This document shows positions 1 through 59,044 of a stretch of DNA of 64,000 nt, one piece after another. The stretch is from a virus. The notes beneath the pieces were generated by a model. That model was not told where the DNA came from. It worked only from the letters and a program-made list of their open reading frames with translations, and did not search any database. The position numbers and the translations under genes were made by a program. Each line of letters opens with the position of its first letter. Position 1 is the first letter of the stretch. The stretch is taken from the IMG/VR virus record IMGVR_UViG_3300002460_000027; one strand, given 5' to 3'.

Positions 1-705
1 CATCCCGGGGCGGAGCGCTTCGGCCAAGTCAAGCATCCGGGCGGCGGGCAGGTGCGGGACGAAGATCTCCCCGCCCTGCATGTCCTGGATCGCGTCCGTC
101 ACGAACTGGACTGCTTGGGGCATGGTGATGATGAAACGGGTGGCGAGGGGGTCCGTGATGGTCAGCGGCAGCGGCTGGGCCCGCCACGTGTGGACGACCG
201 AGCCGCGTGACCCCAGCACGTTGCCGTACCGGAGCACGCTGGAGAGGGTGCCGCTCGGGGCTCCGTAGGTGTTGTAGGCCACTGTCATCCACTCGGCTTG
301 GGCTTTGGAGACGCCGTAAGCGTTCGTAGCATAGCACGCTTTGTCCGACGATATAAGCAGCACACGGCGGACATCAGCGAGGTGTGCGGCTCTGAGCACG
401 TTGCGAGTTCCGAGTACATTAGTCTGAAATACCTCGTCAGGGTCACGGGCCACGCTGTCAACACGCTTGAGAGCCGCCGCGTGTACCACCGCATCAACTG
501 GAGCAAATGCCAATGTGAGCCGGTCTTGGTCACGGACATCTCCTAGGAAGAAGTCCACACGCGGGTCGGGGATCGCCGCCCGCATCTGGGCTTGCTTCAG
601 TTCGTCTCGGGACAGCACGACCACGCGCCAGTCGGTTGTGGCGAGCACGTGGCGGGTGAGCGCGTGGCCGAGAGAGCCGGTGCCGCCCGTGATGAGGAGT
701 CTCAT
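1..705 (-). CDS. pseB: PseB/FlaA1-like UDP-GlcNAc 4,6-dehydratase, 5' part (complete copy at 51238-52200)
   Basis: Identical to 51496-52200; starts MRLLITGGTGSLG (ATG at 705). Confidence 0.85.
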   Translation of the reverse strand, partial: MRLLITGGTGSLGHALTRHVLATTDWRVVVLSRDELKQAQMRAAIPDPRVDFFLGDVRDQDRLTLAFAPVDAVVHAAALKRVDSVARDPDEVFQTNVLGTRNVLRAAHLADVRRVLLISSDKACYATNAYGVSKAQAEWMTVAYNTYGAPSGTLSSVLRYGNVLGSRGSVVHTWRAQPLPLTITDPLATRFIITMPQAVQFVTDAIQDMQGGEIFVPHLPAARMLDLAEALRPGM

Positions 706-971
706 CTGGATACGCTGAACCAACATGGAGAAAGTCCCCATACTCTTATAGTATTCCGTACGTTCTCACACTCTGCTTGTGTGTCAAATGGACCCACAAC
801 CGTAGCTGGCGCTCCCCCACCAAACAGCCCTCCTGAGTTGCCAGGGATAAGAAACCACCAAGCCAAGACGATAATTAGTCTGAGCCTCATCACAGCCACA
901 CATGCCCCCCATCCGGCAGCACCTGCCCCCACGTTGCCGGGCAGGTGAACGGATGCCCCCAAAACGTCCAC
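702..971 (-). CDS. small hypothetical membrane/secreted protein (likely start near MRLRLIIVLAWW)
   Basis: Hydrophobic N-terminal stretch; fills the gap between polymerase and dehydratase. Confidence 0.5.
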   Translation of the reverse strand: MDVLGASVHLPGNVGAGAAGWGACVAVMRLRLIIVLAWWFLIPGNSGGLFGGGAPATVVGPFDTQAECENVRNTIRVWGLSPCWFSVSR

Positions 972-1903
972 TCCCGTTCAACCAGCCCCCGGAGGGTCGC
1001 GTGTGCGAGGTCCGGGGAGATACGGTCTGGAAACCCGACCTCCGCCCCGTCATGCCGGTTGACCACCAGCCAGCACTCGGGGAGGACCGCTGTCAGCCCG
1101 ATCAGCGTGAGGTTCATCATGTCTGAGACCGTGGCAGAGATGGTGTGCGACCAGCCTTCCTTGGCGCGGGCACGACGATCACCAGACAGCCTTCTAAGTC
1201 GCCCGAACCCGGAACGAGCCAGACCCGTGTCAGCGCAAGACTGCTGCGCGGCCATTTTGGCGGCCACGAACCGTGGCTTAGCGCGGAGATAGGCCTTACC
1301 AAAGTCCTCAAGCTCTCGCCGGGTATAGCCAAGTTTCTCTACCCCCTTGGCATTGAGGATACCACGGTGGTCCTCCGCATACAAGAGGGCGTAGCGGGCC
1401 GTCTTGGCCATGTGACGCTGGGCGTCGGTCACGGGCGGCTCGACGTTGAACATGCGGCAGGCCGTCAGCGTGTGGACGTCGGCCCCGGAGGCGAAGGCGT
1501 CCAAGTCTTCCTGGTCTTGGCAGTAGGTGGCGGCGAGTCGGGCTTCGACGGCTTGCCAGTCGAACGTGAGCCAGTAGGTTCCGGGATCTGGCACGAGCAC
1601 GCCCCGAACATCTCGCGGGCACCAGGTATCCTCCACGTGCGGCAACTGGCACACGGACAGATCATGCCGTGGGAAGTTGGTAAGGGGGGGACTAGTAGTA
1701 CTCCACCGTCCTGAAGCCTGGGCAGTAGGGAGCATGAGTGGGTAGATACGGTCCCGTTCGGCCAGATCAGCAACATAGCGTCGTATCCCCTCTAGTTCTG
1801 TGTGGGCCAGCCTAGCGTCCAGCACGTCCGAGATGACCCCATGCCGCCGGAGGGCCTCAAGGGTGTCGGCCTCAACGCTGTGGGGCGGGCGGCGCTTGGG
1901 CAT
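890..1903 (-). CDS. polA: DNA polymerase family A, polymerase (thumb/palm/fingers) part
   Basis: GRWSTTSPPLTNFP, motif A DWQAVEARLAA, DVHTLTA, motif B RHMAKTARYALLY, motif C NRHDG; start could be 1903 or 1969. Confidence 0.9.
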   Translation of the reverse strand: MPKRRPPHSVEADTLEALRRHGVISDVLDARLAHTELEGIRRYVADLAERDRIYPLMLPTAQASGRWSTTSPPLTNFPRHDLSVCQLPHVEDTWCPRDVRGVLVPDPGTYWLTFDWQAVEARLAATYCQDQEDLDAFASGADVHTLTACRMFNVEPPVTDAQRHMAKTARYALLYAEDHRGILNAKGVEKLGYTRRELEDFGKAYLRAKPRFVAAKMAAQQSCADTGLARSGFGRLRRLSGDRRARAKEGWSHTISATVSDMMNLTLIGLTAVLPECWLVVNRHDGAEVGFPDRISPDLAHATLRGLVEREWTFWGHPFTCPATWGQVLPDGGHVWL

Positions 1904-2048
1904 GGACGGTCTGTTGGGTACAGTTCCAGCATGTAGCAGCGGTTTCTGGCTTGATGAGTACCCACCCATATGGCCACGAGTTCCACTCCCGGCCGAGCGG
2001 TATCACGTGCCCACAAGCATACACGTTCCCGGCCAGGGTCACCGCCAT
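1872..2048 (-). CDS. 58-aa Cys/His micro-protein (CGHV...CWNC), divergent family member lying between the two polymerase ORFs
   Basis: MAVTLAGNVYACGHVIPLGREWNSWPYGWVLIKPETAATCWNCTQQTVHAQAPPAPQR; ATG overlaps the upstream TGA. Confidence 0.6.
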   Translation of the reverse strand: MAVTLAGNVYACGHVIPLGREWNSWPYGWVLIKPETAATCWNCTQQTVHAQAPPAPQR

Positions 2049-3412
2049 CGTTCTACCCCATACCCCTGCGCGGCCACCTGCGGACCAGAGCGGAGGTTCA
2101 ACGGCCAGCCGGCCGCTGCTTGAGCTTCCAGTGCAATCGTATGCTGGGCATCCCGCAAAGAGAGCACAGCCCGTTTGGCTCGTAGGGCATCCACTCGTAT
2201 GCCCACCCTGCGCGCCATAGCAACGATACGCAGAAGCGGCAGTAGCGCGTGTCTGTAGACCCACTCGCTGGCTGGGTCTCGGGCCAGCTCGTCTCGGAGT
2301 CCCTGCCAGACGTCCCACGTTCCGAGCGCGTCCCCTGCCGCGTACTCGACCGGGTTGGCTTGGGAGAGGTGCTTCCAGCGGTTCGTACGGGCATAGAGGC
2401 TCCCCAGGAAGTCCAGGTCGTGAGCCAGTTCCGAATAGAGCGCGTGATGGGCATACATGGTGTCCTCGTGTGTCACCGGAACGGTGCCGAAGAACTCCTC
2501 TAGGCGGTCAATGTCCGCGTCGGCTTGGTGGAAGATAACGTGCGGCATCTGGGCTGAGGTGCCAAGCATCCTTGGCAGAGGCTCGTCCGCGTCCACTACC
2601 CAGACTTTCTCCCCGTCCGACGCAGACCATCTGACGAGGTGCCGTTCCTGCCCCTGCTCCCAGAACTCCGTGTCAAACGCAAACTCAGCCGGCCACGCCG
2701 CCATCGCCCGCCGGATCGGCGGCATCGGCTGGGGCCAGCGCCCCGCCAGCAGCTCGCCGAGCTTCTGCCAGTCCCGAAGCGCGGCTGGCTTGAGCCACGG
2801 GGCCTCGTAGATCGCGGCTGGGTGAAGGGTAGCGTACACCACCATCCCGCCTCCCGGCGGCGTCCATACGTGCGAGGCCGTCTGACGCTTGAAGGGGGAC
2901 CACGGTAGCACCCACCCGCGCCACCCGGCTATCTTTCGTGAGATGCCGTAGGGGGGCGGGTCGCCGCCGTCTTCCCCTGTGGTGGCCCAGAGTGCGTAAC
3001 CGCCGAGGGCGACGACAACCATACACGCCGCCGGGGGTCGAAAGTATGCCTGCTGGCAGTGCTGGATCGCGTTTCTGACCTCCACTCGTTCCAATGTAGG
3101 TAGCTGGTTAGAGCCACCAACGCGGCATCGGACGACATTGGCGAGGGAAACGTCTTCTCGCACCAAGCCAGCAAGCGGGAGGTACGTTCGTCCCAGGTCA
3201 TAGCCGGAGTCTCCGATGAAGGGGGCGGGCTCGCCCGGCTCCCACTTCTTGAGCCGGCCCGCCCGGCCGACGAGCCGCTCCCCACGTTCTTCGTGCTCAC
3301 CGGGGGCCTGCCCTAAGACCAAGACGGGGACGGGCCGGTACTCGTCCGGCACCATCCACCGCCCTTTGGTCTCGAAGGGGCAGCCGCGACATCCGGGGCC
3401 CTTTGGGATCAC
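2039..3412 (-). CDS. family-4 uracil-DNA-glycosylase-like domain fused to PolA 3'-5' exonuclease (N-terminal half of DNA polymerase)
   Basis: CRGCP, VLGQAPG, PFIGDSG, NVVRCR, ALG, TLHPAA (UDG4); FDTE, FHQADAD, EDTM, YAAGDA (Exo I-III); PLNLRSGPQV (thumb start). GTG start at 3412 inferred. Confidence 0.85.
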   Translation of the reverse strand: MIPKGPGCRGCPFETKGRWMVPDEYRPVPVLVLGQAPGEHEERGERLVGRAGRLKKWEPGEPAPFIGDSGYDLGRTYLPLAGLVREDVSLANVVRCRVGGSNQLPTLERVEVRNAIQHCQQAYFRPPAACMVVVALGGYALWATTGEDGGDPPPYGISRKIAGWRGWVLPWSPFKRQTASHVWTPPGGGMVVYATLHPAAIYEAPWLKPAALRDWQKLGELLAGRWPQPMPPIRRAMAAWPAEFAFDTEFWEQGQERHLVRWSASDGEKVWVVDADEPLPRMLGTSAQMPHVIFHQADADIDRLEEFFGTVPVTHEDTMYAHHALYSELAHDLDFLGSLYARTNRWKHLSQANPVEYAAGDALGTWDVWQGLRDELARDPASEWVYRHALLPLLRIVAMARRVGIRVDALRAKRAVLSLRDAQHTIALEAQAAAGWPLNLRSGPQVAAQGYGVERWR

Positions 3413-3417
3413 CCAAC

Positions 3418-3909
3418 CTAGTCCCGCACAGGACTCAGCGCCACGACGAAGTTGCTGGGCTCTGGGAACCGCTCGTTGCCTTCCAGCCGCCGGATACGGA
3501 GCCGGACGGGGTAGTCCCGCACGTACCCAGCCACCTCGGCCAGGGTGTCCGGGTCGCGGCCGTTCGCCGTCTTGAAGGCGGTCACGGCCTGTGTCCACCG
3601 CTGGGAACTGGCATCCGGCCGCCCGGAGTCGTTCGTCACCCGGTCGGGGGACATCGTGAGCCCGATCCCACCCTTCTCGCCCGTGACCTCGTGCTGCACC
3701 TGCGCGAAGAAGCGGTACTCAATCCGGCCGCGCTCGCCCCCGCCGTTGTCCTGCACCTTCGTCCGGTCGGAGACTCGCGCCGTCAGCGTCAGGGCGGGCA
3801 GCGTCCGATACGTCCCCTCGGTGAGAAGCAGCGCAGTCTGCGTCTCCTTGTCCTGCTCGGCCTGCTCCTGCGTGTACGCTCGTGCCAACAGTTCGTCCAT
3901 GCCTTCCAT
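3418..3909 (-). CDS. hypothetical protein, possible ssDNA-binding protein by position
   Basis: Follows the Sak4-like and exonuclease genes; no diagnostic motif. Confidence 0.45.
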   Translation of the reverse strand: MEGMDELLARAYTQEQAEQDKETQTALLLTEGTYRTLPALTLTARVSDRTKVQDNGGGERGRIEYRFFAQVQHEVTGEKGGIGLTMSPDRVTNDSGRPDASSQRWTQAVTAFKTANGRDPDTLAEVAGYVRDYPVRLRIRRLEGNERFPEPSNFVVALSPVRD

Positions 3910-3910
3910 T

Positions 3911-4078
3911 TTATCTTCCCCCTTGGCTCAAACAGGGCCTGTGATGAATTATCGGCAGACTGCACCTGCAACATCCCGTTTTGGTTAGTGGCATTACTAC
4001 GTGAGTGGGCCAAATCCCTACAGCGTTCCAGACACACACATGCCCGCAACTCTCGACATACGTTTGCAGCGTTCTCAT
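3911..4078 (-). CDS. 55-aa CGHVC...CCRC micro-protein
   Basis: MRTLQTYVESCGHVCVWNAVGIWPTHVVMPLTKTGCCRCSLPIIHHRPCLSQGGR; ATGA overlap with upstream stop. Confidence 0.7.
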   Translation of the reverse strand: MRTLQTYVESCGHVCVWNAVGIWPTHVVMPLTKTGCCRCSLPIIHHRPCLSQGGR

Positions 4079-4839
4079 GGTTTCAGCAACGGTTCCAGCT
4101 TGCGGAAGTCCGGCGGCTCCAGCTTGTTCGGGAGTCGCGCCGCCATCTCGGGCGGGAGCTTGACCCCGACCCCCCAGACCTTCCCCGCCGGCCGGATCTG
4201 CCAGCGTGCGGTGACCTTCCCCTGCGGGGTGGGCGGGTCCACTTCCGCGTACAGCACGACCGAGAACTCGCCCACGATCCGTGACGCCATCATGCCCGGC
4301 AGGTCGGGGAAGATGTGGCTCGGCGCGTTCTTGGACTTGTCGGTCGGGTCGTCCTTCGTGCGGCCTTCCCATGCCGTCATTACAACATACGGCACCTGGG
4401 ATTGCAAGACTTTGTTGAGGTACGCCCCGAAGTCCCGGTGGGCCTTCCCGTAGGCTTGCCCGACCGTCTCCTCCCGCTGCCCAAGGTCGAGCCACGCCCG
4501 CTCGAAGTACCACGTGTAGAGTTTGTGGACGCCGTCCCCCACGAACGTCATGCACTCGCCGTGCTTGCCGGCCAAGAGTTCCGTCGTGAGCGTTTCGACC
4601 TCGGTCACGACGGCGTGTGGGGAGAGTTTCGCGGGGTCGGCCACCTCCCAGATCCAGGCGGTGTGGTCCGGATTGTCACGCGGGATCGTCTCGTAGCCCT
4701 TCTCGCCCGGGTAGGAGACATGCTGCCGATGGGCCGGCCACGTGAAGCACGCCGTTGTCTTGAGCGTGTTGGGGGGGCCGGAGATGAGCACCCGGCGACC
4801 GTAGTGGGGCGTGGCGTCTTGCCAGCGTTTAAAGGGCAT
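4075..4839 (-). CDS. Sak4/AAA_24-like phage NTP-binding recombination protein
   Basis: Walker-A-like ISGPPNTLKTT, Walker-B-like FVGDG, VVMTAWE, PDLPG; next to the exonuclease. Confidence 0.7.
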   Translation of the reverse strand: MPFKRWQDATPHYGRRVLISGPPNTLKTTACFTWPAHRQHVSYPGEKGYETIPRDNPDHTAWIWEVADPAKLSPHAVVTEVETLTTELLAGKHGECMTFVGDGVHKLYTWYFERAWLDLGQREETVGQAYGKAHRDFGAYLNKVLQSQVPYVVMTAWEGRTKDDPTDKSKNAPSHIFPDLPGMMASRIVGEFSVVLYAEVDPPTPQGKVTARWQIRPAGKVWGVGVKLPPEMAARLPNKLEPPDFRKLEPLLKP

Positions 4840-5080
4840 GAAGGTTTCCTTGTCGAATGTAATACGAGGTTAGCCCGTAGTATGTGTTACTGCTTGTTTC
4901 TCTCAGCCCCACTGGGGCAAACTTTATTACAGCCCCAAGCGGTCCGTCGTAACCCTCACACGCCTCTAGAAATGCTGCTAGCAGTGTGGTAGCGCAGACT
5001 TGTTTGTTTTCGATTCCACCAGAACTTACGATCCACCCTTCCGCGCACATTGGTTCAGTTAGGGCGTCTCTCAAGGGCAT
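4829..5080 (-). CDS. hypothetical protein
   Basis: Open frame overlapping neighbours at both ends; lower GC. Confidence 0.45.
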   Translation of the reverse strand: MPLRDALTEPMCAEGWIVSSGGIENKQVCATTLLAAFLEACEGYDGPLGAVIKFAPVGLRETSSNTYYGLTSYYIRQGNLHAL

Positions 5081-5277
5081 CAGGTGTCCTTTCGAGAGTT
5101 ACACGATTGACAACCCCAACCATGAGGACGCGCCTGTGGCGTACACCGGCAACACCCCTCTTTGAGTATAACAATCACCTTACCATTTAGGTTTGTGAGT
5201 GGTGGCATCAACACATGCCCACACTCAGGCACCTCAACAAACCATGTTCCATCAAACCTTCCGTTCCAGCCGGCCAT
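5080..5277 (-). CDS. 65-aa CGHV...CCRC micro-protein
   Basis: MAGWNGRFDGTWFVEVPECGHVLMPPLTNLNGKVIVILKEGCCRCTPQARPHGWGCQSCNSRKDT. Confidence 0.65.
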   Translation of the reverse strand: MAGWNGRFDGTWFVEVPECGHVLMPPLTNLNGKVIVILKEGCCRCTPQARPHGWGCQSCNSRKDT

Positions 5278-6046
5278 AAGCACTCTCCATCTGGTCTGGG
5301 TCCAAGTGTAGCACATGACAAGCTGGGATATACTCACACGGGCCGTACTTGCCGTAACAGGCCGTGAAGTTCGGGGTGGAGTCTCGACACCACGGCTCGT
5401 CTTCATCAAACGTTTTGTCCATGTCAAACCATGCCTGCTCAGCCCCTTTTAGCCAAAACGTGAGCCGGGCGGGGGTCACCTCGACAGGGTGGAGGAACGT
5501 CTGCACACGCGGGGCCAGTTGGATCATGTGAACCCGGGCCCACGAGACAGGCTCCCGCAACACCTCACCGACCTCCCACGCATAATGGAAGAGCTGGTGA
5601 CTGGTGAAGTATTCGGTCAGTTTGTCCTCACCGGCCCGCATCGTGACCTTCGTGTCCGTCACCACGAGCCCTTGACCGGGGATGCGCTGCACGAGGTCCG
5701 GGCGGGCGGTGCTCGGCAGGGGCTCATCCACCATCAACACCTCGCCGTGGTCTCGCAGGTTGTCCCCGCGTCCGGCCTCGTACCCCTTCTGGGCCAGCTT
5801 GACCAGCGCCTCCCGCGTCCAGGTGTCGTTGTCCCGGAAGCCCTCCAGGATGACGCGGCGCAGCGTGTCCTCGGGAACTGGGGTTGGGTGGCCCCGATAG
5901 TGTTCGGAGAGCGCGTCCCCGATGGCGGACCCCAAGAGCATGTTCGGGGTCCATACCCTACCCAGCGGCTCCCAAGAACGCTTTAGAGTCGCGTACATAG
6001 GACACCGGAGCCAGTCAGCGGTACGGCTTGGGCTGTAGGATGGCAT
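5252..6046 (-). CDS. PD-(D/E)xK exonuclease, Cas4/RecB-like with probable Fe-S cluster
   Basis: SPSRTADWLRCP, RPDLV, VVTDTK, QLFHY, C-terminal C...C.Y...C. Confidence 0.8.
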   Translation of the reverse strand: MPSYSPSRTADWLRCPMYATLKRSWEPLGRVWTPNMLLGSAIGDALSEHYRGHPTPVPEDTLRRVILEGFRDNDTWTREALVKLAQKGYEAGRGDNLRDHGEVLMVDEPLPSTARPDLVQRIPGQGLVVTDTKVTMRAGEDKLTEYFTSHQLFHYAWEVGEVLREPVSWARVHMIQLAPRVQTFLHPVEVTPARLTFWLKGAEQAWFDMDKTFDEDEPWCRDSTPNFTACYGKYGPCEYIPACHVLHLDPDQMESAYGRLERKV

Positions 6047-6051
6047 TCTAG

Positions 6052-6258
6052 TCAGCGCTTACCGCCTAGGGGAGGGCTTCCTTTGGGCCGGAGACGTCTG
6101 CCGGCCTCGCGCCGAGCGGCCCCCACACCACTCACGCACCGTGAGCAGGTGTATATAGCTGGTTTCTCAGGCAAATACGGCCATCGAAGCTCTCCACATC
6201 TGGCGCAGGAGACCTCGTATGTCTGATGATGCTTCAAGTGGGTGCAGATGGTGGCCAT
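6052..6258 (-). CDS. small zinc-finger protein (CARC...CSRC)
   Basis: Two CxxC pairs; upstream SD-like GGAG. Confidence 0.55.
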   Translation of the reverse strand: MATICTHLKHHQTYEVSCARCGELRWPYLPEKPAIYTCSRCVSGVGAARREAGRRLRPKGSPPLGGKR

Positions 6259-6269
6259 GCTCGTGTCTC

Positions 6270-6443
6270 CTAGCCTCTTCTACGACAGGCACAGAGGGCA
6301 CTATAGTCGTCTGTGATTCCATTCCCCGATGTTTCTCCCCGGCACCGGCAACACATACTTATTGTCCTTGGGTAGACCCACGCAGCCTCTGTCCTCTCAA
6401 CACACACATGCGGGCATTTTGTGTGGTAGTACACACTAAGCAA
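6270..6443 (-). CDS. about 57-aa CPHVC...CCRC micro-protein
   Basis: LSVYYHTKCPHVCVERTEAAWVYPRTISMCCRCRGETSG...LCAC; TTG start inferred from overlap with upstream TAG, alternative start 6488. Confidence 0.65.
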   Translation of the reverse strand: MLSVYYHTKCPHVCVERTEAAWVYPRTISMCCRCRGETSGNGITDDYSALCACRRRG

Positions 6444-6666
6444 AACTCTGCCGTGTGGTGACACGCCGCCGTTTGAGTTCATCGACACTCACCACTCTAC
6501 ACAGATTGCCGTTCTTGTCAAGCACCCTGACGGGCCCGTACGGTCGCTCGGGTGGCTCGGGGAGTCGGACTTCGTGGAGGGCTGACAACCCGACCAGCGA
6601 GTGTTCAAGCATCCGAGAGTCTACCTTCTCGGTCTCAGGCTTCTTGTGATGCGAGCGTCTTGGCAT
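6436..6666 (-). CDS. hypothetical protein (MPRRSHHKK...)
   Basis: GGGAGG SD upstream of ATG 6666. Confidence 0.55.
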   Translation of the reverse strand: MPRRSHHKKPETEKVDSRMLEHSLVGLSALHEVRLPEPPERPYGPVRVLDKNGNLCRVVSVDELKRRRVTTRQSFA

Positions 6667-6688
6667 ACGCGCCTCCCTTTGGTAGAAT
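6660..6688 (+). promoter_or_regulatory. sigma70-type promoter with extended -10; probably leaderless for the helicase
   Basis: TTGGCA(6660-65)-17 bp-TAGAAT(6683-88) with TGG before -10; GTG start 7 nt downstream. Confidence 0.6.
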
Positions 6689-6695
6689 GTGAATC

Positions 6696-7481
6696 GTGCC
6701 CCTCGACCTCTCGCGCCTGCTGACCGAAACCCCGCAAGAACCACACTGGGTGGCGAACGGGATGCTGCCGCGTGGTACGCTCGTGGTGCTGGCCGGCGAC
6801 GCAGGAGTCGGCAAGAGTTTCCTGAGCTACACGCTGGCGTTCTCGGTGGCGGCCGGGCTGCCGTTCCTCGGGCGACGGGTGGAGCAGACCCGGGTGCTCT
6901 ACGTGGATGAGGAAAACTCCCTGCCAGACTTGCAAGCCTACCTGCGCTGGGTCTGGCTGGGGGTGGGGAGGCCGGACATCACGCGGCTGTCCCAGTTTCT
7001 CCACGTGGAGCACTTCACCCTTGGCCGTCAGTGGCAAGATCAGCTCACCCGCGAGTGTCTGGCGTTCCGGCCCGGGCTCATCATCGTAGACACGGCCACG
7101 TCCGCCCTCAAGATCCAGGACGAGAACGACAACGCCGAGGCCGCCCGCGTCATCTCGGGGTTGCACCAAGCCCGGGCGGCCAGCCACAACGACGCCACGG
7201 TGCTCGTGCTCAAGCACGCCAAGGTGTTGGAAGACACCCAGCACCGCCGGACGGTTCGCGGGGCAAAAGTCTGGCTTGGGCAGGCCGATGCCGTCTGGTT
7301 CCACCACGCCAAGTCCGGGCGACCACGGAAGGACGGCCTCCGACCGACCGTGCTGGAACCCGACAAAGTGCGGGCCTGGGGGCTCCGAGAGGGGGTCTCG
7401 ATTACCCCCGAGTGGACGACTGAGGAACCCCGTGGGATTAAACTCATTGGGCAGTCGCTCATTTCCCAACCCGCCAAGTAG
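6696..7481 (+). CDS. RecA-fold AAA_25/RepA-type helicase
   Basis: LVVLAGDAGVGKSFL Walker A, VLYVDEEN, LIIVDT Walker B, LKHAK, RGAKVW. Confidence 0.8.
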   Translation: MPLDLSRLLTETPQEPHWVANGMLPRGTLVVLAGDAGVGKSFLSYTLAFSVAAGLPFLGRRVEQTRVLYVDEENSLPDLQAYLRWVWLGVGRPDITRLSQFLHVEHFTLGRQWQDQLTRECLAFRPGLIIVDTATSALKIQDENDNAEAARVISGLHQARAASHNDATVLVLKHAKVLEDTQHRRTVRGAKVWLGQADAVWFHHAKSGRPRKDGLRPTVLEPDKVRAWGLREGVSITPEWTTEEPRGIKLIGQSLISQPAK

Positions 7482-7549
7482 TTGAAAAGGCGTCGATCTG
7501 ACATGCCATTAATTGGCTACCCTTATACAGAAGGGGAAGCCCTCACGAG

Positions 7550-7891
7550 GTGGCCATGAGACGTTGCCTTTGCTCCCACAAGATGCTGAAGACGAAGTGC
7601 CGAATCTGCCTACAAAAGAGGCAATCCACTCGCCAATACTGGAAGAGAGCGGCCAAGTTGAAGCGACTCGGTTTGACCCCGGCAGATTATGAGATTTTCC
7701 TAGAAGTCCAAGGCGGTCTGTGTGCATTTTGCGGGCGCGTGCCAACACACCGAAGGCTGGCGGTTGACCACAATCACAAGACAGGGAAGGTTCGTGGTCT
7801 TCTCTGCTATCGTTGCAACCGTTTCCTTGTTGGCTTTCATACCATCTCAACAGCCAAGCGATTGTTGGCATATCTACTTACCAGAGATTGA
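7550..7891 (+). CDS. endonuclease VII-like HNH nuclease
   Basis: QGGLCAFCG...LAVDHNHKTGKVRGLLCYRCN. Confidence 0.85.
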   Translation: MAMRRCLCSHKMLKTKCRICLQKRQSTRQYWKRAAKLKRLGLTPADYEIFLEVQGGLCAFCGRVPTHRRLAVDHNHKTGKVRGLLCYRCNRFLVGFHTISTAKRLLAYLLTRD

Positions 7892-8098
7892 AGCATCCTC
7901 CCCCCAATCCCAGCCCCGAACGAAGGTGCCGGTGGCGTAGGGGCAGTAGTTTCCATCTAGTTTCCTACCATCGCAGCGACAGCAGTCATACCCATCAACT
8001 CGGGTGACTATGGCCTGATCCACTTTTTTTGCATGCTCGTCTCGTCTATGTGGACACACATGCCCGCAGTTCCCTACCAGGAGCCAGATTCTAAGCAC
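7874..8098 (-). CDS. 74-aa CGHVC...CCRC micro-protein
   Basis: MLRIWLLVGNCGHVCPH...DGYDCCRCDGRKLDGNYC; GTG overlaps upstream TAG. Confidence 0.7.
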   Translation of the reverse strand: MLRIWLLVGNCGHVCPHRRDEHAKKVDQAIVTRVDGYDCCRCDGRKLDGNYCPYATGTFVRGWDWGEDASISGK

Positions 8099-9230
8099 GC
8101 CGCACCACCTGAGCCCCAGCCGGGACGGGCTCCCCAGCTCCGACCACCCACAGGTCAGCCTCAGCCCCCACCGGCCATCCGTCAGCCGTGCCCCCGTCTG
8201 TCAGCCACACTGTTTGCTTGTCAGGATCGCGGTGCTCGCCAGCCGCCCGGATGAGGGTGCCGCCGCCCGCCGACCGGCACATGGCCAGGACTGCCCCCAC
8301 GTCCGAGGCGTCCACGGGCTCCCGACACAGGTGGTCGAACACCACCACGTCCGAGCTGGCTAGCTCAGGGGTCGAGCACACCGCCGCTAAGAGTTGCCCC
8401 AACAGCTCGTCCCCAATGCTTCCCGAGGCGTCCAGCATGAACCGGGCTGCGCGGGCTTCCCCACGGGCCGAGCCCGGCAGGAGGTCCGGGTTGACGCGGT
8501 GTGCCCGCCGCCAAGACCGCAACCGCTCCTCTCTGGCCACGACCCGCGTCACCAACCAGTCCAGCACCTCTTGTATCCACGGGGGGCATGCGGGGAGCGT
8601 AGGAGTTGGCCGCATCCCGTTCCCGTTTGGCCCAGCGTCTCCCAGCACCGCCCGCCCCACCGCCGAGGCTTTCATCCGGCTGGCCAACGTGGAATCGGCC
8701 AAGGAATGGCCAGCAGCCCCGCATGTATGCCCTTGGAACGGTTTGGCTTCCTTCACAATGATGTCATAGAGGCGCTCAGACGGCATTAGCGTCAGAGGGC
8801 GTTTGAGACTCTTGGAAAGACGTTCGTAGGTTACAGACTCCCAGTCACATTCCCGATCTACTACTTCCCAGTCAGACTCTTTGAGCCCATGAATATTGGC
8901 GTCGGTCGCAATGTTCCACGCCAAGACTGGATTTTGGCCACTGGGGTCTGTCAGCACGACGTTTCGATCACCGTGCCGAGCCCAGCATCCGTGGGCCACG
9001 TGGCTGGCTTCGTGGCGCAGGATTTCTACACGAGCGGCGTGCGGCGCTCGCTCCCAGAGCTTCCCGAGCAGGAGCGTCAGCCGCCCATCCTCCAACAGAC
9101 TCCCGACTGTCGGCACCTCAGGCGCGTGGCGTACCTCGTCGACGAGAGCGAGGAAGTTTGTCACGTCGGGCGGCCACGGAGAGGCATCGGGTAGAGCAAC
9201 TGTCCAGTCTACAACGGCAGCAGGGTTCAC
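8091..9230 (-). CDS. HEXXH metallopeptidase-like domain + vWA domain protein (DUF2201-type)
   Basis: ILRHEASHVAHG, WNIATDANI, MLDASGSI (MIDAS), GGGT, WLTDG; SD GGGAGG before GTG. Confidence 0.8.
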   Translation of the reverse strand: MNPAAVVDWTVALPDASPWPPDVTNFLALVDEVRHAPEVPTVGSLLEDGRLTLLLGKLWERAPHAARVEILRHEASHVAHGCWARHGDRNVVLTDPSGQNPVLAWNIATDANIHGLKESDWEVVDRECDWESVTYERLSKSLKRPLTLMPSERLYDIIVKEAKPFQGHTCGAAGHSLADSTLASRMKASAVGRAVLGDAGPNGNGMRPTPTLPACPPWIQEVLDWLVTRVVAREERLRSWRRAHRVNPDLLPGSARGEARAARFMLDASGSIGDELLGQLLAAVCSTPELASSDVVVFDHLCREPVDASDVGAVLAMCRSAGGGTLIRAAGEHRDPDKQTVWLTDGGTADGWPVGAEADLWVVGAGEPVPAGAQVVRRA

Positions 9231-9336
9231 TGTGTACCTCCCTAAAGACCGCTAAGTCGTGAATGCCAGGGTATACACACACGTGTCCACACACCGAGAC
9301 AAACAGGTAATCTGTTATCGGCTTTTCTTTAGCCAC
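9118..9336 (-). CDS. 72-aa CGHVC...CCRC micro-protein
   Basis: MAKEKPITDYLFVSVCGHVCVYPG...EPCCRCRLDSC; overlaps the start of the vWA gene. Confidence 0.65.
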   Translation of the reverse strand: MAKEKPITDYLFVSVCGHVCVYPGIHDLAVFREVHSEPCCRCRLDSCSTRCLSVAARRDKLPRSRRRGTPRA

Positions 9337-9506
9337 GTCTGGACCCCATGCTCAGACACTCTCTGTCGTGGGTGGGAAGACTAGGATCAGTATCACACCG
9401 GCAACACTCAACATACTTTCCGTTCCCGGCCAAACTGTATTGGCCTACCCAGACACAGATATGTCCACACCGCCTTACTTGGACCCAGAGCTTTTCTTTA
9501 GCCACG
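9321..9506. repeat. 17-bp direct repeat GCTTTTCTTTAGCCACG at 9321-9337 and 9490-9506
   Basis: Seen directly; each copy encodes the MAKEK start of a micro-protein. Confidence 0.85.
9329..9505 (-). CDS. 58-aa CGHIC...CCRC micro-protein (not in the supplied ORF track)
   Basis: Hand translation from GTG 9505: MAKEKLWVQVRRCGHICVWVGQYSLAGNGKYVECCRCDTDPSLPTHDRECLSMGSRRG. Confidence 0.7.
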   Translation of the reverse strand: MAKEKLWVQVRRCGHICVWVGQYSLAGNGKYVECCRCDTDPSLPTHDRECLSMGSRRG

Positions 9507-10488
9507 CCCGAATCTCCTTCATGGCCGCGTCCCGCTTCTCCGGGGCTCCGATGCCCTCGAACACGACTGGGTTGCCAAACACCGCCTCATACGCTCGCTG
9601 CCACTCGCCCGAGGTGTCCTCGTTGACGCGGTTGACAATCGTTTGGAGCGCTAGTCGCTTGGGCTCAGGCCCAGGCCCGGTCAGCACGTCGATGGCTGAC
9701 TCCACAAACTGGCGTGGGGTGCAGGACGTGGCCCACTCTTCAGGGCTCACCGTCACCCGATGCTGGGCCAGCCTGGACAGCACCACGTCCCGCATGGCCG
9801 TGTCACACAGCCCTTGAATGACGAGGGTGCGGACGACCTCTCGCTCCTGTCCCCAGAAGTCGGCATCCTCGACCCACGGCGTCAGGCGATGAGCGGCCCG
9901 TGGGGAGCGTTCCCGCTCCGGCAACCGAATGGGCGGCGGGGCGTCGTAGAGCCCGTCCCAGAGCCACGTGTTCCGCTTGAGGTCGTCCCGTTCGAGGATG
10001 CGCGTATCCGGCCCCGGGTAGGGGAGCAGCAGCAGCCGGGAGAGCAGCTCGGGCCGCAGGGGGCGCTTGGGCTCGTTCATGGCCGCCACGAGCGCGACCG
10101 TAGGGTGGAGCGTTGTGAAGCGTATTCTCCGCTCCTCAAGGAGCGAGAGCAGCCCAGACTGGTTGTCCTCTCGGGCCTTGTCCAACTCATCGATCACCAG
10201 TGCCCACCCACCCCTGCCTATCAGCTCCGGCGGGATCATGCTGGGTTGGGTAAAGCGCAGGAAGCCCTCGCTATCCTTGAACGGGTGACCCCCTTCATCT
10301 TCGGGCAGGTCAACTTGCGGGTTGTAGAACACTACGGGGTCATATCCAGCCCCGCGCAGCACCATTCCGATTGAGCGCGTCTTTCCCCACCCAGTCGGCC
10401 CGACGAGACAGGGGACACCCCGAACCGGGTCCTTTGAGGCTTTCACGATGATCCACTCGATGCCGGCTCCGATCCCTGCGTTTGCCAT
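9475..10488 (-). CDS. MoxR/dynein-related AAA+ ATPase
   Basis: LVGPTGWGKT Walker A, LVIDELDKA Walker B, VAAMN sensor I, LLSR; TAATG coupling at 10488. Confidence 0.8.
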   Translation of the reverse strand: MANAGIGAGIEWIIVKASKDPVRGVPCLVGPTGWGKTRSIGMVLRGAGYDPVVFYNPQVDLPEDEGGHPFKDSEGFLRFTQPSMIPPELIGRGGWALVIDELDKAREDNQSGLLSLLEERRIRFTTLHPTVALVAAMNEPKRPLRPELLSRLLLLPYPGPDTRILERDDLKRNTWLWDGLYDAPPPIRLPERERSPRAAHRLTPWVEDADFWGQEREVVRTLVIQGLCDTAMRDVVLSRLAQHRVTVSPEEWATSCTPRQFVESAIDVLTGPGPEPKRLALQTIVNRVNEDTSGEWQRAYEAVFGNPVVFEGIGAPEKRDAAMKEIRAWLKKSSGSK

Positions 10489-10775
10489 TAGTGGGCCTCC
10501 AACCATGCGTTGATGAGAGGAAGGGCTTTCTTTCGCTCGGTTGTCCTATCGGAGCCCAGCGCAGCCACAATTTCGTCAGTGTCAAACACGAAGTTGTATG
10601 CGGTGGGCCACCCCGTTCGCCCAAAGTGCTGATCCACGCTCACCCGCTCGATGATTACTCGCAAAGCGTTCCTCGTGTCGTTTGGGTCGGCCCGCTCCAA
10701 CTTGTCCAGCACCGTGGCCACAAACTCCTTTGGCGTGCAGCGTGTTGCCCAGTTGACGAGTTCAGAGTTTGCCAT
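10488..10775 (-). CDS. 95-aa stand-alone paralogue of the AAA+ ATPase C-terminal domain
   Basis: WATRCTPKEFV...RNALRVIIERV...WPTAYNFVF...INAWL aligns with the ATPase tail. Confidence 0.75.
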   Translation of the reverse strand: MANSELVNWATRCTPKEFVATVLDKLERADPNDTRNALRVIIERVSVDQHFGRTGWPTAYNFVFDTDEIVAALGSDRTTERKKALPLINAWLEAH

Positions 10776-10818
10776 CGCTCCCCCTGTGTGGTATACTACA
10801 CTTGTCGGAGTCTGACCG

Positions 10819-11094
10819 CTAGCGGTCCTGCACACCCCCACCCGCGCGTTCCTCCAACACTTTGATCTCCGTCTCCATCCCCACCGCTACCTCATCCAGG
10901 GTGCGCGTGATCGCGTCCCTCGGCCCCCCGGGCGGTTGCCGGAGCCGGGCCCAGTCGTGCCGGAGGGCCAGCAGCTCCCGCAGCAGGTAGCGGAGCACGT
11001 CGGTTGGCGGTTCTGAGTGTCCCTGCACCCGGCACGTCACAGGACACCGATCCAGCGTAGGGTAAGCAGCGTCGTGACCCCCCACAACATCCAC
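10819..11094 (-). CDS. hypothetical protein
   Basis: Co-oriented ORF in the small early-gene array. Confidence 0.4.
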   Translation of the reverse strand: MDVVGGHDAAYPTLDRCPVTCRVQGHSEPPTDVLRYLLRELLALRHDWARLRQPPGGPRDAITRTLDEVAVGMETEIKVLEERAGGGVQDR

Positions 11095-11103
11095 TCGGTC
11101 AGA

Positions 11104-11316
11104 CTAGGCTTCGTCATGGTCTTTCTCCAACAGCGGATGCTTTCCAGTCTTATCAAACAGCCGGTGAGCTGCTTGGACTTTCCTGAGTGCCGCCTGATAG
11201 CACCCCTTCCGTGGAAGATTCGCCAAGTGTCCACTCTCAGACTCGATAAGGTACTGGAAGAGCGTTACGACTGACAACTGGTTACGCTTCACGTCTTGCA
11301 TGCGGATCTTACTCAT
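11104..11316 (-). CDS. hypothetical protein
   Basis: ATGA-coupled small ORF. Confidence 0.5.
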   Translation of the reverse strand: MSKIRMQDVKRNQLSVVTLFQYLIESESGHLANLPRKGCYQAALRKVQAAHRLFDKTGKHPLLEKDHDEA

Positions 11317-11521
11317 GTCGCACCGTCTCTTTCATGGCTTGCCTGAGCTGTTGCACCTCAGCCCGAAGTTGTGCCCGTTCGAGGATCAACCTGAGCATAT
11401 ACACCCGTGTCGAGCAGCGGTCAAGCGTTTCTTTGTCCATGTCAGCCTCCCAAGAGCCCCAACACAATCGACCATGTGGCGATGGCAGCGCTCAGGGCGG
11501 CGATGGCAAGGATGTCTTGGG

Positions 11522-11872
11522 TCATGTCGTCTCTCCTGACAATTCGTTTTCAATTGAGGTTAACCCATCAGCCAATGCTGTTAGCATTACCTCATTGGCT
11601 GTACCATATCCCTTGTTGGCATCTACAATGGCCACAATCCTATTGTAAAGAGATTTCCCTACTTGATTATTTGTGACAATTGTAAACCGCTTTATACCAT
11701 CTCCCCCCTTGCCTTTGGCGGTTGGCATTTCAGGTTTGCTCGGGCCAAGTTCACGATTGGTTGCCGCTTTCGCGGTGGCAGGCTTTGGTTTAGGGGTCGG
11801 GACACGGGGGATCTTCTCTGGGACTAGTCGCGTCCATCCCCCAGACGGTGGATACTTGCCGGTTGATGACAT
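11522..11872 (-). CDS. hypothetical protein, Pro/Lys-rich N-terminus
   Basis: Coupled to neighbours; lower GC. Confidence 0.55.
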   Translation of the reverse strand: MSSTGKYPPSGGWTRLVPEKIPRVPTPKPKPATAKAATNRELGPSKPEMPTAKGKGGDGIKRFTIVTNNQVGKSLYNRIVAIVDANKGYGTANEVMLTALADGLTSIENELSGETT

Positions 11873-11874
11873 GG

Positions 11875-12159
11875 TTAAACGCGGACCTTGGTGAGGGCGG
11901 CGCGGGCTTCGTCCACATGGTTCGCCATTGCGAGCAACGCTCCTGCGCCCAGCTTGCCATCACGCTGCCACTTCTCAACCCATGCTGTCATTGTTTCCAG
12001 CGCTGCCAGCAGGTCCGGCGCGGCGGCAATGAGGGGGGCGTTGGCTCTGAGTTCTCCGGTTTCATCCACCGCCTCGGCAATCAGAGAGTCTCGGGCCATG
12101 ATCCAAGCACTCTTTCCGTCTATCAACACGGTCCACGGTCCCGGCGTGTGGGCGGTCAT
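11875..12159 (-). CDS. phage hypothetical protein (HTPGPW...LIAAAPDLLAALE family)
   Basis: Recognisable motif common in phage early regions; start MTAHTPGPW. Confidence 0.65.
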   Translation of the reverse strand: MTAHTPGPWTVLIDGKSAWIMARDSLIAEAVDETGELRANAPLIAAAPDLLAALETMTAWVEKWQRDGKLGAGALLAMANHVDEARAALTKVRV

Positions 12160-12422
12160 GCCGTCCCCCCCCTCGCCTTGGCGATGGCGGCGCGGGCCTT
12201 GAGGTAAGCTACGAACCCATCTCCGTGTTGATTCCATTCTGGTGTATCGCCAGCCCGTTCAGCCAAGTCATGCAACACAGTTTCTGCCCCTTCCAGCGCC
12301 GCCAGCAGGTCCGCGTTGATGGCCTTGAGGCGGTCATATCCGGCACGGCCCCAACACTTCGGACAGGCCCCAATGCCGAAACAGTATCTACAGCCATAGG
12401 TTTCCGGCGTGTGGGCGGTCAT
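12156..12422 (-). CDS. hypothetical protein partly paralogous to the downstream gene
   Basis: MTAHTP start, CxxCxGxGxCxxC, ADLLAALE, ARAAIAKA. Confidence 0.6.
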   Translation of the reverse strand: MTAHTPETYGCRYCFGIGACPKCWGRAGYDRLKAINADLLAALEGAETVLHDLAERAGDTPEWNQHGDGFVAYLKARAAIAKARGGTA

Positions 12423-12628
12423 GGCGTCACCTCCACCCCGCACGCAGCGAGGAACCGGGCACGGTCGAAGTTGGGGTTGAAGTTAGCACATGTCGCGCTG
12501 ATCCTAGTGGCGGTCTGGTTGATAACCGCCCGAGCGTAGGCCCGCCCATCAGGGTTGTCAATCAGTCTCACATCCTCCCGCGCTTGCCTGATTGCCGCTG
12601 CCAGCGCCTCAAAGTGCTTCTTAGTCAT
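12419..12628 (-). CDS. phage hypothetical protein (MTKKHFEALA...NPNFDRARFLAACG family)
   Basis: Recognisable phage motif; GAGGTG SD. Confidence 0.7.
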   Translation of the reverse strand: MTKKHFEALAAAIRQAREDVRLIDNPDGRAYARAVINQTATRISATCANFNPNFDRARFLAACGVEVTP

Positions 12629-46932: not shown

Positions 46933-47654
46933 GTGGTCCCCCTTTCAAGAGAATTATACACAGGTCCCCCCACCTTGGCCATACGGATGTCATAGGCGCG
47001 GCACTCCACCAACCCGCCCCGGTTCGTCGCCTCGTCTACTTGGTGGAGATCCCACCGGGGCGTCCGGCCCGGACCCGCAATGGACCCCGCCGAGTTCTGG
47101 TGGTGTGGTGTTCCGCGTCGGCACCACTCACACGCCGCCATCACCGCCCGCACGAAGTCTAGCCCCGTCTGGTCGTCCACCGACCAGCGGTAGGTGCCCG
47201 GGAGGTGGTAGGGCTCTCTCAGCGCCCGGTTGGCTCGCATCCAGACCGTCACGTGTTCCCGCTTGATGCCGGTCTCGGCCTCGTCTGCCTCCATCAGCGT
47301 CTCCCGGTCGAAGACCTCTGTGTCCAGCCCGTCCATGCTGAGACAGGTTCCGTAGTAGCCGTGCCGCCATCCAGCCAAGACCTGCCGTCCGACCTCTGCG
47401 TCCCAGAGGGGGCAGTCCGCTGTCACCCGGATGAACCGAGTCACGTCCGGGTGCCGGTTAGCCACCCGCACGAACCGGGTCAGCACGTCCCACTCGGGCT
47501 CCAGTTCGGGCCATGCGACGACAAGCGGGTATCCGAGCTGGGCCACCCGCTTCACGACATGAGCCAGCATTGGCTCACCGTCGATGTCCTTCATCACCTT
47601 TCCCGGGAGCCGCGTCCCCCCGTGGCGTGCTTGGATGACGGCTAGTGTTTGCAT
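46929..47654 (-). CDS. SpsF/PseF-type acylneuraminate cytidylyltransferase
   Basis: VIQARHGGTRLPGKV, DVLTRF, IRVTADCPL, GLDTEVF, REHVT, RWSVDD. Confidence 0.85.
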   Translation of the reverse strand: MQTLAVIQARHGGTRLPGKVMKDIDGEPMLAHVVKRVAQLGYPLVVAWPELEPEWDVLTRFVRVANRHPDVTRFIRVTADCPLWDAEVGRQVLAGWRHGYYGTCLSMDGLDTEVFDRETLMEADEAETGIKREHVTVWMRANRALREPYHLPGTYRWSVDDQTGLDFVRAVMAACEWCRRGTPHHQNSAGSIAGPGRTPRWDLHQVDEATNRGGLVECRAYDIRMAKVGGPVYNSLERGTT

Positions 47655-47809
47655 AGGGATTGTAGACTGTGCGTCCTGTTAGTCGCCTCTGAGCATCGGC
47701 AACACTTACCCCCAACTTGGTTATAGAGATGGCCTTGCCCAGAAGAGGGCCGCCACACACAAACATGTGGGCACTCAGTCCACACAGCAATCTCTAGTTT
47801 GGACTTCAC
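47642..47809 (-). CDS. 55-aa CPHVC...CCRC micro-protein (not in the supplied ORF track)
   Basis: Hand translation from GTG 47809: MKSKLEIAVWTECPHVCVWRPSSGQGHLYNQVGGKCCRCSEATNRTHSLQSLCKH; GTGA coupling upstream. Confidence 0.7.
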   Translation of the reverse strand: MKSKLEIAVWTECPHVCVWRPSSGQGHLYNQVGGKCCRCSEATNRTHSLQSLCKH

Positions 47810-47969
47810 AAGTACAACCCCGTATACACCTTCGCCGTCTTCACCATCTCCTCACACTCGGCTTTCTTCTCCGCCACACCAGGGGACTTCTTCTCAATGA
47901 CAGACGAGTCGCTGAGCGGCTCCGGCGTGGCCGTCGTCACCGTGATGGTCCAGCGCCACACGCGGAAGG

Positions 47970-51237: not shown

Positions 51238-52200
51238 TCATACGCCCTCCTCCGGCACACTCTCACACAGGTTCCGCAACGTCGCCACGTCCAATCCCGG
51301 CGCGGCATCAGACGTGCGAGCCCCGGGGGTCACCAAGGGCTCGTTCGCCCACGCCGGCTTGTCCGTCCACGGGTGGAAGAAGGGCGGCACGATGCTGACC
51401 CGGCCGACGTCCACGGCCCGCTCGGACTCCTCAGCGGTCAAGAGCGTCTCGTGCCGTTTCTCCCCACCCGGGCGCGGGCCGGTGTCTACCCACGACATCC
51501 CGGGGCGGAGCGCTTCGGCCAAGTCAAGCATCCGGGCGGCGGGCAGGTGCGGGACGAAGATCTCCCCGCCCTGCATGTCCTGGATCGCGTCCGTCACGAA
51601 CTGGACTGCTTGGGGCATGGTGATGATGAAACGGGTGGCGAGGGGGTCCGTGATGGTCAGCGGCAGCGGCTGGGCCCGCCACGTGTGGACGACCGAGCCG
51701 CGTGACCCCAGCACGTTGCCGTACCGGAGCACGCTGGAGAGGGTGCCGCTCGGGGCTCCGTAGGTGTTGTAGGCCACTGTCATCCACTCGGCTTGGGCTT
51801 TGGAGACGCCGTAAGCGTTCGTAGCATAGCACGCTTTGTCCGACGATATAAGCAGCACACGGCGGACATCAGCGAGGTGTGCGGCTCTGAGCACGTTGCG
51901 AGTTCCGAGTACATTAGTCTGAAATACCTCGTCAGGGTCACGGGCCACGCTGTCAACACGCTTGAGAGCCGCCGCGTGTACCACCGCATCAACTGGAGCA
52001 AATGCCAATGTGAGCCGGTCTTGGTCACGGACATCTCCTAGGAAGAAGTCCACACGCGGGTCGGGGATCGCCGCCCGCATCTGGGCTTGCTTCAGTTCGT
52101 CTCGGGACAGCACGACCACGCGCCAGTCGGTTGTGGCGAGCACGTGGCGGGTGAGCGCGTGGCCGAGAGAGCCGGTGCCGCCCGTGATGAGGAGTCTCAT
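51238..52200 (-). CDS. pseB: UDP-N-acetylglucosamine 4,6-dehydratase, PseB/FlaA1-like
   Basis: ITGGTGSLG, GDVRD, HAAALKRV, SSDKA, YGVSK, RYGNVLGSRGSV, ITDPLATRF, GGEIFVP, RPGGEKRHE. Confidence 0.9.
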   Translation of the reverse strand: MRLLITGGTGSLGHALTRHVLATTDWRVVVLSRDELKQAQMRAAIPDPRVDFFLGDVRDQDRLTLAFAPVDAVVHAAALKRVDSVARDPDEVFQTNVLGTRNVLRAAHLADVRRVLLISSDKACYATNAYGVSKAQAEWMTVAYNTYGAPSGTLSSVLRYGNVLGSRGSVVHTWRAQPLPLTITDPLATRFIITMPQAVQFVTDAIQDMQGGEIFVPHLPAARMLDLAEALRPGMSWVDTGPRPGGEKRHETLLTAEESERAVDVGRVSIVPPFFHPWTDKPAWANEPLVTPGARTSDAAPGLDVATLRNLCESVPEEGV

Positions 52201-52384
52201 CTGGATACGCTGAACCAACATGGAGAAAGTCCCCATACTCTTATAGTATTCCGTACGTTCTCACACTCTGCTTGTGTGTCAAATGGACCCACAACCGTAG
52301 CTGGCGCTCCCCCACCAAACAGCCCTCCTGAGTTGCCAGGGATAAGAAACCACCAAGCCAAGACGATAATTAGTCTGAGCCTCA

Positions 52385-53398: not shown

Positions 53399-53533
53399 GG
53401 ACGGTCTGTTGGGTACAGTTCCAGCATGTAGCAGCGGTTTCTGGCTTGATGAGTACCCACCCATATGGCCACGAGTTCCACTCCCGGCCGAGCGGTATCA
53501 CGTGCCCACAAGCATACACGTTCCCGGCCAGGG

Positions 53534-54907: not shown

Positions 54908-54912
54908 CCAAC

Positions 54913-55404
54913 CTAGTCCCGCACAGGACTCAGCGCCACGACGAAGTTGCTGGGCTCTGGGAACCGCTCGTTGCCTTCCAGCCGCCGGATACGGAGCCGG
55001 ACGGGGTAGTCCCGCACGTACCCAGCCACCTCGGCCAGGGTGTCCGGGTCGCGGCCGTTCGCCGTCTTGAAGGCGGTCACGGCCTGTGTCCACCGCTGGG
55101 AACTGGCATCCGGCCGCCCGGAGTCGTTCGTCACCCGGTCGGGGGACATCGTGAGCCCGATCCCACCCTTCTCGCCCGTGACCTCGTGCTGCACCTGCGC
55201 GAAGAAGCGGTACTCAATCCGGCCGCGCTCGCCCCCGCCGTTGTCCTGCACCTTCGTCCGGTCGGAGACTCGCGCCGTCAGCGTCAGGGCGGGCAGCGTC
55301 CGATACGTCCCCTCGGTGAGAAGCAGCGCAGTCTGCGTCTCCTTGTCCTGCTCGGCCTGCTCCTGCGTGTACGCTCGTGCCAACAGTTCGTCCATGCCTT
55401 CCAT
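54913..55404 (-). CDS. hypothetical, possible SSB (repeat copy)
   Basis: Same as 3418-3909. Confidence 0.45.
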   Translation of the reverse strand: MEGMDELLARAYTQEQAEQDKETQTALLLTEGTYRTLPALTLTARVSDRTKVQDNGGGERGRIEYRFFAQVQHEVTGEKGGIGLTMSPDRVTNDSGRPDASSQRWTQAVTAFKTANGRDPDTLAEVAGYVRDYPVRLRIRRLEGNERFPEPSNFVVALSPVRD

Positions 55405-58976: not shown

Positions 58977-59044
58977 TTGAAAAGGCGTCGATCTGACATG
59001 CCATTAATTGGCTACCCTTATACAGAAGGGGAAGCCCTCACGAG

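Follow-up and report, generated by a model that had tools for sequence, protein, structure and literature searches.

A probable two-subunit family A DNA polymerase in an uncultured groundwater phage: an ancient gene split and a later micro-gene in the junction

Results

The DNA polymerase locus described here lies near the start of a 64,000-nucleotide (nt) stretch of the virus record IMGVR_UViG_3300002460_000027 (the window, by which the whole stretch is meant), which comes from an uncultured groundwater phage with a 51,495-bp genome of about 63% G+C that is circular or terminally redundant. The replication genes are on the minus strand, and the polymerase is spread there over two open reading frames (ORFs). 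The upstream one (N gene; 2039-3412, minus strand) encodes 457 amino acids (aa) with a family-4 UDG-like domain, a 3'-5' exonuclease and the first part of the thumb, as assigned by Pfam matches (UDG, PF03167; DNA_pol_A_exo1, PF01612) and by alignment. The downstream one (C gene; 890-1903, minus strand) encodes 337 aa with thumb helix I, the palm and the fingers, including PolA motifs A, B and C; this assignment is based on homologues and on a match to the Pfam family DNA_pol_A (PF00476; E = 3e-27, model positions 58-320 of 381). Placed between the two is a micro-gene of 58 aa (P0001; 1872-2048, minus strand), recognized from its translation, from the columns it shares with a family of small ORFs and from a codon model, and displaying the pattern C12-x-H14 ... 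C40-x2-C43. No promoter-like or terminator-like sites were found in 800-3700, an absence which fits a single operon.

The anatomy of the junction was as described in an earlier reading of the same letters (the original prediction). On the minus strand the N ORF ends in ...GYGVERWR followed by TGA (2041-2039); the polymerase resumes in the same frame at ATG 1903 (opening with MPKRRPPHSVEAD...), at a distance of 138 nt (46 codons) from the first base of that TGA, and a second TGA of the polymerase frame is read at 2005-2003 (minus strand). The 135 nt which belong to neither polymerase gene (1904-2038, minus strand) amount to 45 codons in the polymerase frame, with the stop at 2005-2003 among them; in a DNA alignment (A5) this block is present in the window and in the relatives L028, L029 and L031, and absent from L001, L012 and L030. 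It carries, in another frame, the CGHV...CWNC micro-ORF (2048-1872), the ATG of which, at 2048, overlaps the N stop by 10 nt, while its TGA (1874-1872) lies 29 nt past the C start, an overlap of 32 nt. The product sizes given in the original prediction, 457 aa (from GTG 3412) and 337 aa, fit the ORFs, and its remark that ATG 1903 has no obvious Shine-Dalgarno (SD) sequence also holds: no SD-like motif was found upstream of it, though some neighboring genes have one. An assembly artefact at the junction is very unlikely, since eight metagenome contigs of independent assembly (L004-L011) match it letter for letter over 261 nt (2110-1850). As to the N start, gene callers choose an ATG giving 438 aa; GTG 3412 is the likelier start, because the conserved CxGCP motif, common to all relatives, sits upstream of the called ATG (3354-3412).

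The two products had been said to be colinear, when joined, with the usual PolA thumb, and to derive from an ancestral single gene. Alignments with a cellular Pol I (P0044, 864 aa) and with an unsplit metagenomic UDG-exonuclease-PolA protein (P0047, 845 aa) agree with both statements. On the cellular enzyme the N tail aligned to residue 551 with 11 residues to spare (approximately residue 562) and the C head aligned from residue 564, so that the halves abut and no segment is missing or duplicated; on the unsplit protein the N half corresponds to residues 1-463 (30% identity, E = 4e-64) and the C half to residues 525-833. On the Bacillus Pol I large fragment, residues 3-212 of the C half align from position 252 of the chain onward, the C head falling on the KTKTGYSTSADVLEKL stretch, which we take to lie in the thumb of Pol I structures, so that the cut, between the NL.S..Q helix and the SVEAD.LE.L helix, would be at the thumb tip. 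The way in which the halves abut on unsplit polymerases, together with the existence of an unsplit sister clade (L020-L023 and P0047; see below), supports the view that the two ORFs represent the halves of a formerly single UDG-exonuclease-PolA gene.

The same split was found throughout the relatives of this phage. A search with the C half (337 aa) yielded 41 homologues at E <= 2e-44, with 36-72% identity and lengths of 260-498 aa (most of them 333-387 aa); all 26 that were aligned begin at a Met equivalent to ATG 1903 (the Met of MPKRRPP), and in a search limited to longer proteins no fused form exceeded 31% identity (E >= 4e-10). Seven distinct relatives have no insert, and all of them are split at the same residue, with their halves in different and varying frames. 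In L001 (P0009; C-half identity 67%) the N stop, a TAA, overlaps the GTG start of the C gene by 8 nt; the overlap is 26 nt in L012 (P0003; 72%), 20 nt in L030 (P0011; 67%), 26 nt in the P0014 contig (65%), and a single nucleotide in both L003/L015 (P0027; 42%, TGATG) and L016/L017 (36%), and in L019 (34%) the halves are separated by a 4-nt gap. The more distant L020-L023 (25-30% identity) each possess one uninterrupted ORF. Maximum-likelihood analysis grouped the 29 split C halves (34-76% identity), all of which begin at that Met, in one clade (95 by the Shimodaira-Hasegawa-like approximate likelihood ratio test, SH-aLRT); its sister group consists of the unsplit L020-L023 and P0047, and cellular Pol I served as the outgroup. 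The tree points to a single ancient split at the base of this 29-member clade, and the split predates the micro-gene, since the insert-free relatives are cut at the same place. The proposal of the original prediction that a micro-cassette had made the split did not survive the test set for it in advance, as seven insert-free homologues proved to be split identically.

The distribution of the insert itself was in line with this order of events. An extra block of 135-190 nt is held by four members of a 9-member sub-clade (SH-aLRT 98), namely the window, L028 (P0006), L029 (P0010) and L031 (P0008), and is lacking from two other members, L001 and L012; among the junctions examined, the micro-gene family occupies this position only within that sub-clade. 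In all four cases the block can be read without a stop for 58-68 aa, and the frame, which has a ...C-[GD]-H-[VI]... knuckle, starts within the last N codons and ends within the first C codons. The micro-ORF of L029 retains a canonical CCRC, those of L028 and L031 share WYV..CGHIRPN, and in the DNA of the four inserts only the codons of the CxH knuckle can still be aligned. A gain at the base of the sub-clade followed by losses in P0003 and P0009 requires three events and separate gains require four; under either count the insert comes out as younger than the split.

Other small genes have entered the same position elsewhere. The junction of L013/L014 (L013 1367-1573) contains an unrelated 68-aa ORF devoid of the CxH...CxxC pattern, and two further junctions are known from gene coordinates only: three small genes (67, 105 and 39 aa) in the P0022 contig and a gap of approximately 150 nt in the P0004 contig. 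The junction thus appears to behave as a recurrent landing pad for small genes. These occupants bear on a variant of the original proposal, according to which the polymerase gene was intact until the cassette entered and divided it, and the insert-free relatives later lost the cassette but kept two ORFs. Several separate lineages do have small ORFs at the junction (the window, L028, L029, L031, L013/L014, the P0022 contig and probably the P0004 contig), and L020, of the unsplit sister clade, has family-like micro-genes elsewhere, so that family and split may be of equal age. We nevertheless consider this variant improbable, as it requires at least five independent precise losses (in the P0011 and P0014 lineages, P0027/L003, L016 and L019) besides those in P0003 and P0009; moreover, the 68-aa ORF of L013/L014, having no CxH...CxxC, implies that occupants were gained more than once and points to a pre-existing junction as their landing site. 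One more junction, that of L018, displays a 65-nt gap and a CPGC...CWC ORF (2919-3092) which runs into the C gene; the N half of the same contig (1073-2929), at 618 aa, is enlarged by some 160 aa inserted in frame between its UDG-like part and its exonuclease part.

The original prediction had offered two modes of expression, as two subunits or as halves rejoined by splicing or recoding; the former is the best reading of the present data, and the latter found no support. A single chain, produced by readthrough or recoding of TGA, by ribosomal bypass or by RNA or protein splicing, might be suspected from the shared frame of the halves in the window, L028 and L031, and from the hairpin which can be drawn just after the N stop. 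The shared frame, however, carries no weight, because two stops intervene between the halves here and four in L031, and because the halves of directly overlapping relatives are in different frames; in the insert-free relatives these frames vary from one to the next. The predicted nested hairpin is part of the fold of lowest energy, but the 191-nt region is no more stable than its dinucleotide shuffles (z = +0.73; 151 of 200 shuffles fold at least as well), and the hairpins are therefore not a signal. Read in the polymerase frame, the insert has the worst codon score of the three frames, and it has no counterpart in the unsplit polymerases, in which the two halves abut. No match was obtained at E <= 1 in an Rfam search of 1700-2300, the insert cannot be an intein, and reading for a bypass of the gene 60 type revealed no matched take-off and landing codons (CGG before the stop; none before ATG 1903). 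Taking these points on both sides, we regard rejoining as extremely unlikely.

Two specific candidates were rejected in the course of this analysis. An intron or intein is at odds with a 46-codon insert that contains two stops and has no Rfam match, and with the insert-free L001, L012, L030, L003, L016 and L019, which still have two ORFs. The use of TGA as a sense codon was ruled out: TGA is a normal terminator here, the commonest stop of the genome, and is not reassigned, since it ends 17 of the 37 long ORFs; the C half, too, terminates at a TGA where its homologues also end.

The genome contains seven clear paralogues of the micro-gene, which share C-[GP]-H-[VI]-C and CCRC (3911-4078, 5080-5277, 6270-6482, 7874-8098, 9118-9336, 9329-9505 and 47642-47830, all on the minus strand). 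The columns C12, H14, C40 and C43 are invariant across P0001 and all seven (alignment A2), and P0001 shows the features by which the family is recognized, Cys/His/Cys/Cys at the family spacing in an ORF of 55-75 aa wedged between genes. When a hidden Markov model (HMM) of the seven was run against 808 six-frame ORFs, P0001 was the top non-family hit (E = 0.014, 10.6 bits), the seven themselves scoring 62-83 bits; P0001 may thus be a divergent member of the family, though marginally so. A codon model trained on 25 long ORFs was applied to the 132-135 nt unique to the insert; the log-likelihood was highest in the micro frame (-176.5), lower in the third (-186.4) and lowest in the polymerase frame (-195.6), and the G+C content at third codon positions (GC3) in these frames was 0.68, 0.55 and 0.56, respectively.

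These data also bear on the idea that the insert is a non-coding spacer and the micro-ORF a chance open frame. In keeping with it, P0001 reaches only 10.6 bits against the family HMM, matches no database family, and was modeled poorly by AlphaFold with the family alignment (predicted local distance difference test score, pLDDT, of 62). On the other hand, it ranks first of the 808 ORFs outside the family, codon likelihood and GC3 both pick its frame, the frame is open and carries a CxH knuckle in L028, L029 and L031 as well, and in all four phages its start and stop overlap the flanking genes; a chance frame is thus unlikely. The conserved residues would suit a putative CHCC zinc site. When the micro-protein was offered as a partner to the N and C halves in a complex prediction, the score was 0.01, which speaks neither for nor against binding.

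Searches beyond this genome placed the micro-proteins in no known family. There were no matches in Pfam or PHROGs; a profile search of 1.84 billion representatives returned only the source phage's own members, and one of a 5.8-billion collection added a single L020 protein; a feature search of the Atlas yielded only unnamed clusters, at no more than 0.90. Members of the family were nevertheless seen away from the junction in relatives (L028 2817-3008; L020 4402-4539). The seven canonical micro-genes have about 50-55% G+C and no GC3 enrichment, in a genome of 63% G+C with a GC3 of 0.78, and mostly fail the genome codon model, which suggests recent acquisition, fast evolution or unusual constraints. 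No repeats flanking the micro-genes, as a sign of mobility, were found in the window; repetition was confined to the coding CGHVCV motif and to the first 17 nt of the tandem pair at 9321 and 9490.

Both polymerase genes appear intact. The features expected of a family A polymerase are all in place (D...E of motif A, R...K...Y of motif B, HD of motif C, and the acidic residues of Exo I-III): D137, E142, R185, K189, H306 and D307 (motifs A, B and C) do not vary among 27 sequences, nor do the exonuclease residues D247, T248, E249, A299, D300, Y357 and D361 (DTE, AD and Y..D of Exo I-III) in alignment A4. At least 24 metagenome contigs, 12 of which are 50 kb or longer (e.g., 51,636, 51,637 and 51,551 bp), represent this same genome and encode exactly the same C-half protein. 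A gene broken in two, whose C half moreover misses a 25-aa segment found in most relatives, could be taken for a decaying pseudogene in a phage replicated by its host. Such decay is very hard to reconcile with catalytic and exonuclease residues that stay invariant down to 34% identity, with ORFs of full length on both sides of the junction in every relative, and with the recurrence of an identical C half in contigs of the same phage, and we give this explanation next to no credence.

The missing segment, of about 25 aa, would lie at approximately 1400-1460, between motifs A and B (consensus ...LHT.P...AWR....WGG.EDRRRH). All other close relatives except P0039 have it, as does the unsplit sister clade; the lineage of the window seems to have lost a clade-specific insertion of the fingers, and the resulting short form resembles canonical Pol I. 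A change in the opposite direction was noted in P0015 (498 aa), where an insertion of about 136 aa (columns 201-336 of alignment A1), starting with CNVCLHC, immediately precedes the fingers motif DIHT; residues typical of intein ends are not evident in it, and it could be another inserted element or a frame artefact.

Downstream, the stop of the C gene (TGA 892-890) overlaps the ATG of a small gene (TGATG), an ORF of about 62 aa at 702-890 (minus strand) with a hydrophobic N-terminus, which stands outside the micro-gene family; relatives have other small genes in this position, such as the CGHIC...CCRC gene of L028 at 2817-3008. Window positions 1-12505 equal 51496-64000 with zero mismatches, and the window must therefore wrap around the 51,495-bp genome. 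All features in the first 12.5 kb are consequently present twice, with the second copy of the junction at 53367-53543 and that of junction plus N gene at 53367-54907 (minus strand), an exact repeat of the window start. A DNA search of phage records with the 2.5-kb polymerase region gave no match, and all protein matches to this region among phage records were below 31% identity. A scan of viral contigs with a single protein also gave no match, whereas an alignment-based scan did.

Discussion

The data are best explained by a two-subunit family A polymerase which was split in the distant past and in whose junction a micro-gene lodged later, a reading to which we assign a probability of roughly 0.85. 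An ancestral UDG-exonuclease-PolA gene would have been cut once, at the thumb tip, and the two resulting genes kept by the whole clade of phages that descended from it. In the ancestral layout, with the N stop overlapping or abutting the C start, termination-reinitiation may have allowed the subunits to be made in step from one transcript, and the N and C chains would assemble non-covalently through thumb and palm interfaces, probably by way of antiparallel thumb helices, to which both chains contribute. A CxH...CxxC micro-gene would later have lodged in the stop/start junction of one sub-clade, that of the source phage, and the overlaps at both of its ends could now support a translation relay from N through the micro-ORF to C. 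The micro-protein itself would be a separate small product, putatively zinc-binding, that contributes no residues to the polymerase.

Several points weigh against this account. With 29 nt between the C start and the micro-ORF stop downstream of it, termination-reinitiation would have to reach far back. The family membership of P0001 is marginal (E = 0.014): it has no Cys after HV, and a CWNC where the others have CCRC. The order in which the split comes first and the insert later is a matter of parsimony over the junctions of about 14 distinct relatives; three insert-bearing junctions (P0004, P0022 and L018) were not readable or could not be judged, and the tree is a quick one with several open forks. 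A bolder extension of the proposed scheme is that the CxH...CxxC micro-genes are undescribed tiny cassettes which colonize the coupled stop/start junctions of phage replication operons, and that the polymerase copy, kept in four diverged phages, either relays translation from N to C or serves as a third, thumb-associated subunit; this we offer as a long shot.

Interruptions of phage polymerase genes are known from several systems, among them the SPO1-type group I introns in PolA and the split gene 43 of the T4-like phage Aeh1. The case described here is similar to these in that foreign DNA is found inside a polymerase coding region; it differs from them in having neither a ribozyme nor an ORF of endonuclease size, and in that removal of the insert does not restore a single ORF in the relatives. 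The thumb tip is also modified in T7 gp5, where an in-chain insertion is reported to form the thioredoxin-binding loop that recruits the host protein. By our reading of the sequence mapping both changes are located near the thumb tip, but in the present phage the chain is cut.

Split phage polymerases have been published before, and the present case is a new lineage of that kind. The nearest in layout are the OM43 phages MEP401 and MEP402 (Zobellviridae), in which PolA is divided between an ORF for the exonuclease with the N-terminal PolA part and an ORF for the C-terminal PolA part, separated by one small ORF without an assigned function; the split is common to related metagenomic genomes, and the authors left an intron possible (PMC10580990). 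Those phages belong to another lineage and no UDG-like domain was reported for them, whereas here the split exists in relatives that have no small ORF, no intron RNA was detected, and the small ORF seems to belong to a multi-copy family. A clade-wide two-gene split was likewise described for the T7-like PolA of uncultured marine cyanophages and of an island in Synechococcus WH8016, where the split genes are monophyletic (bioRxiv 10.1101/325100); these belong to an unrelated PolA clade, and no micro-gene was reported. The nearest experimental support for the proposed assembly, by analogy, comes from PhiKZ, whose DNAP-N and DNAP-C were demonstrated to form a stable and active 1:1 core (bioRxiv 10.64898/2026.09.30.755723); that enzyme, from a jumbo phage, is of family B and is split at another site, while ours is of family A. 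A 2018 survey of PolA by Nasko (PMC6302109) does not mention split genes.

What the present analysis adds to these reports is comparative data that set the age of the split apart from that of the insert, and that thereby correct an attractive but wrong account: the split was not the work of the small gene, and neither splicing nor recoding is needed. They define a sizeable clade of groundwater and soil phages in which the UDG-exonuclease-PolA replicase would be a natural heterodimer cut at the thumb tip, a natural example of a break tolerated by a family A polymerase that could serve split-enzyme engineering. They also bring to light an orphan family of Cys/His micro-proteins, with eight copies in the source phage and more in its relatives, and indicate that small genes can settle repeatedly in a coupled stop/start junction.

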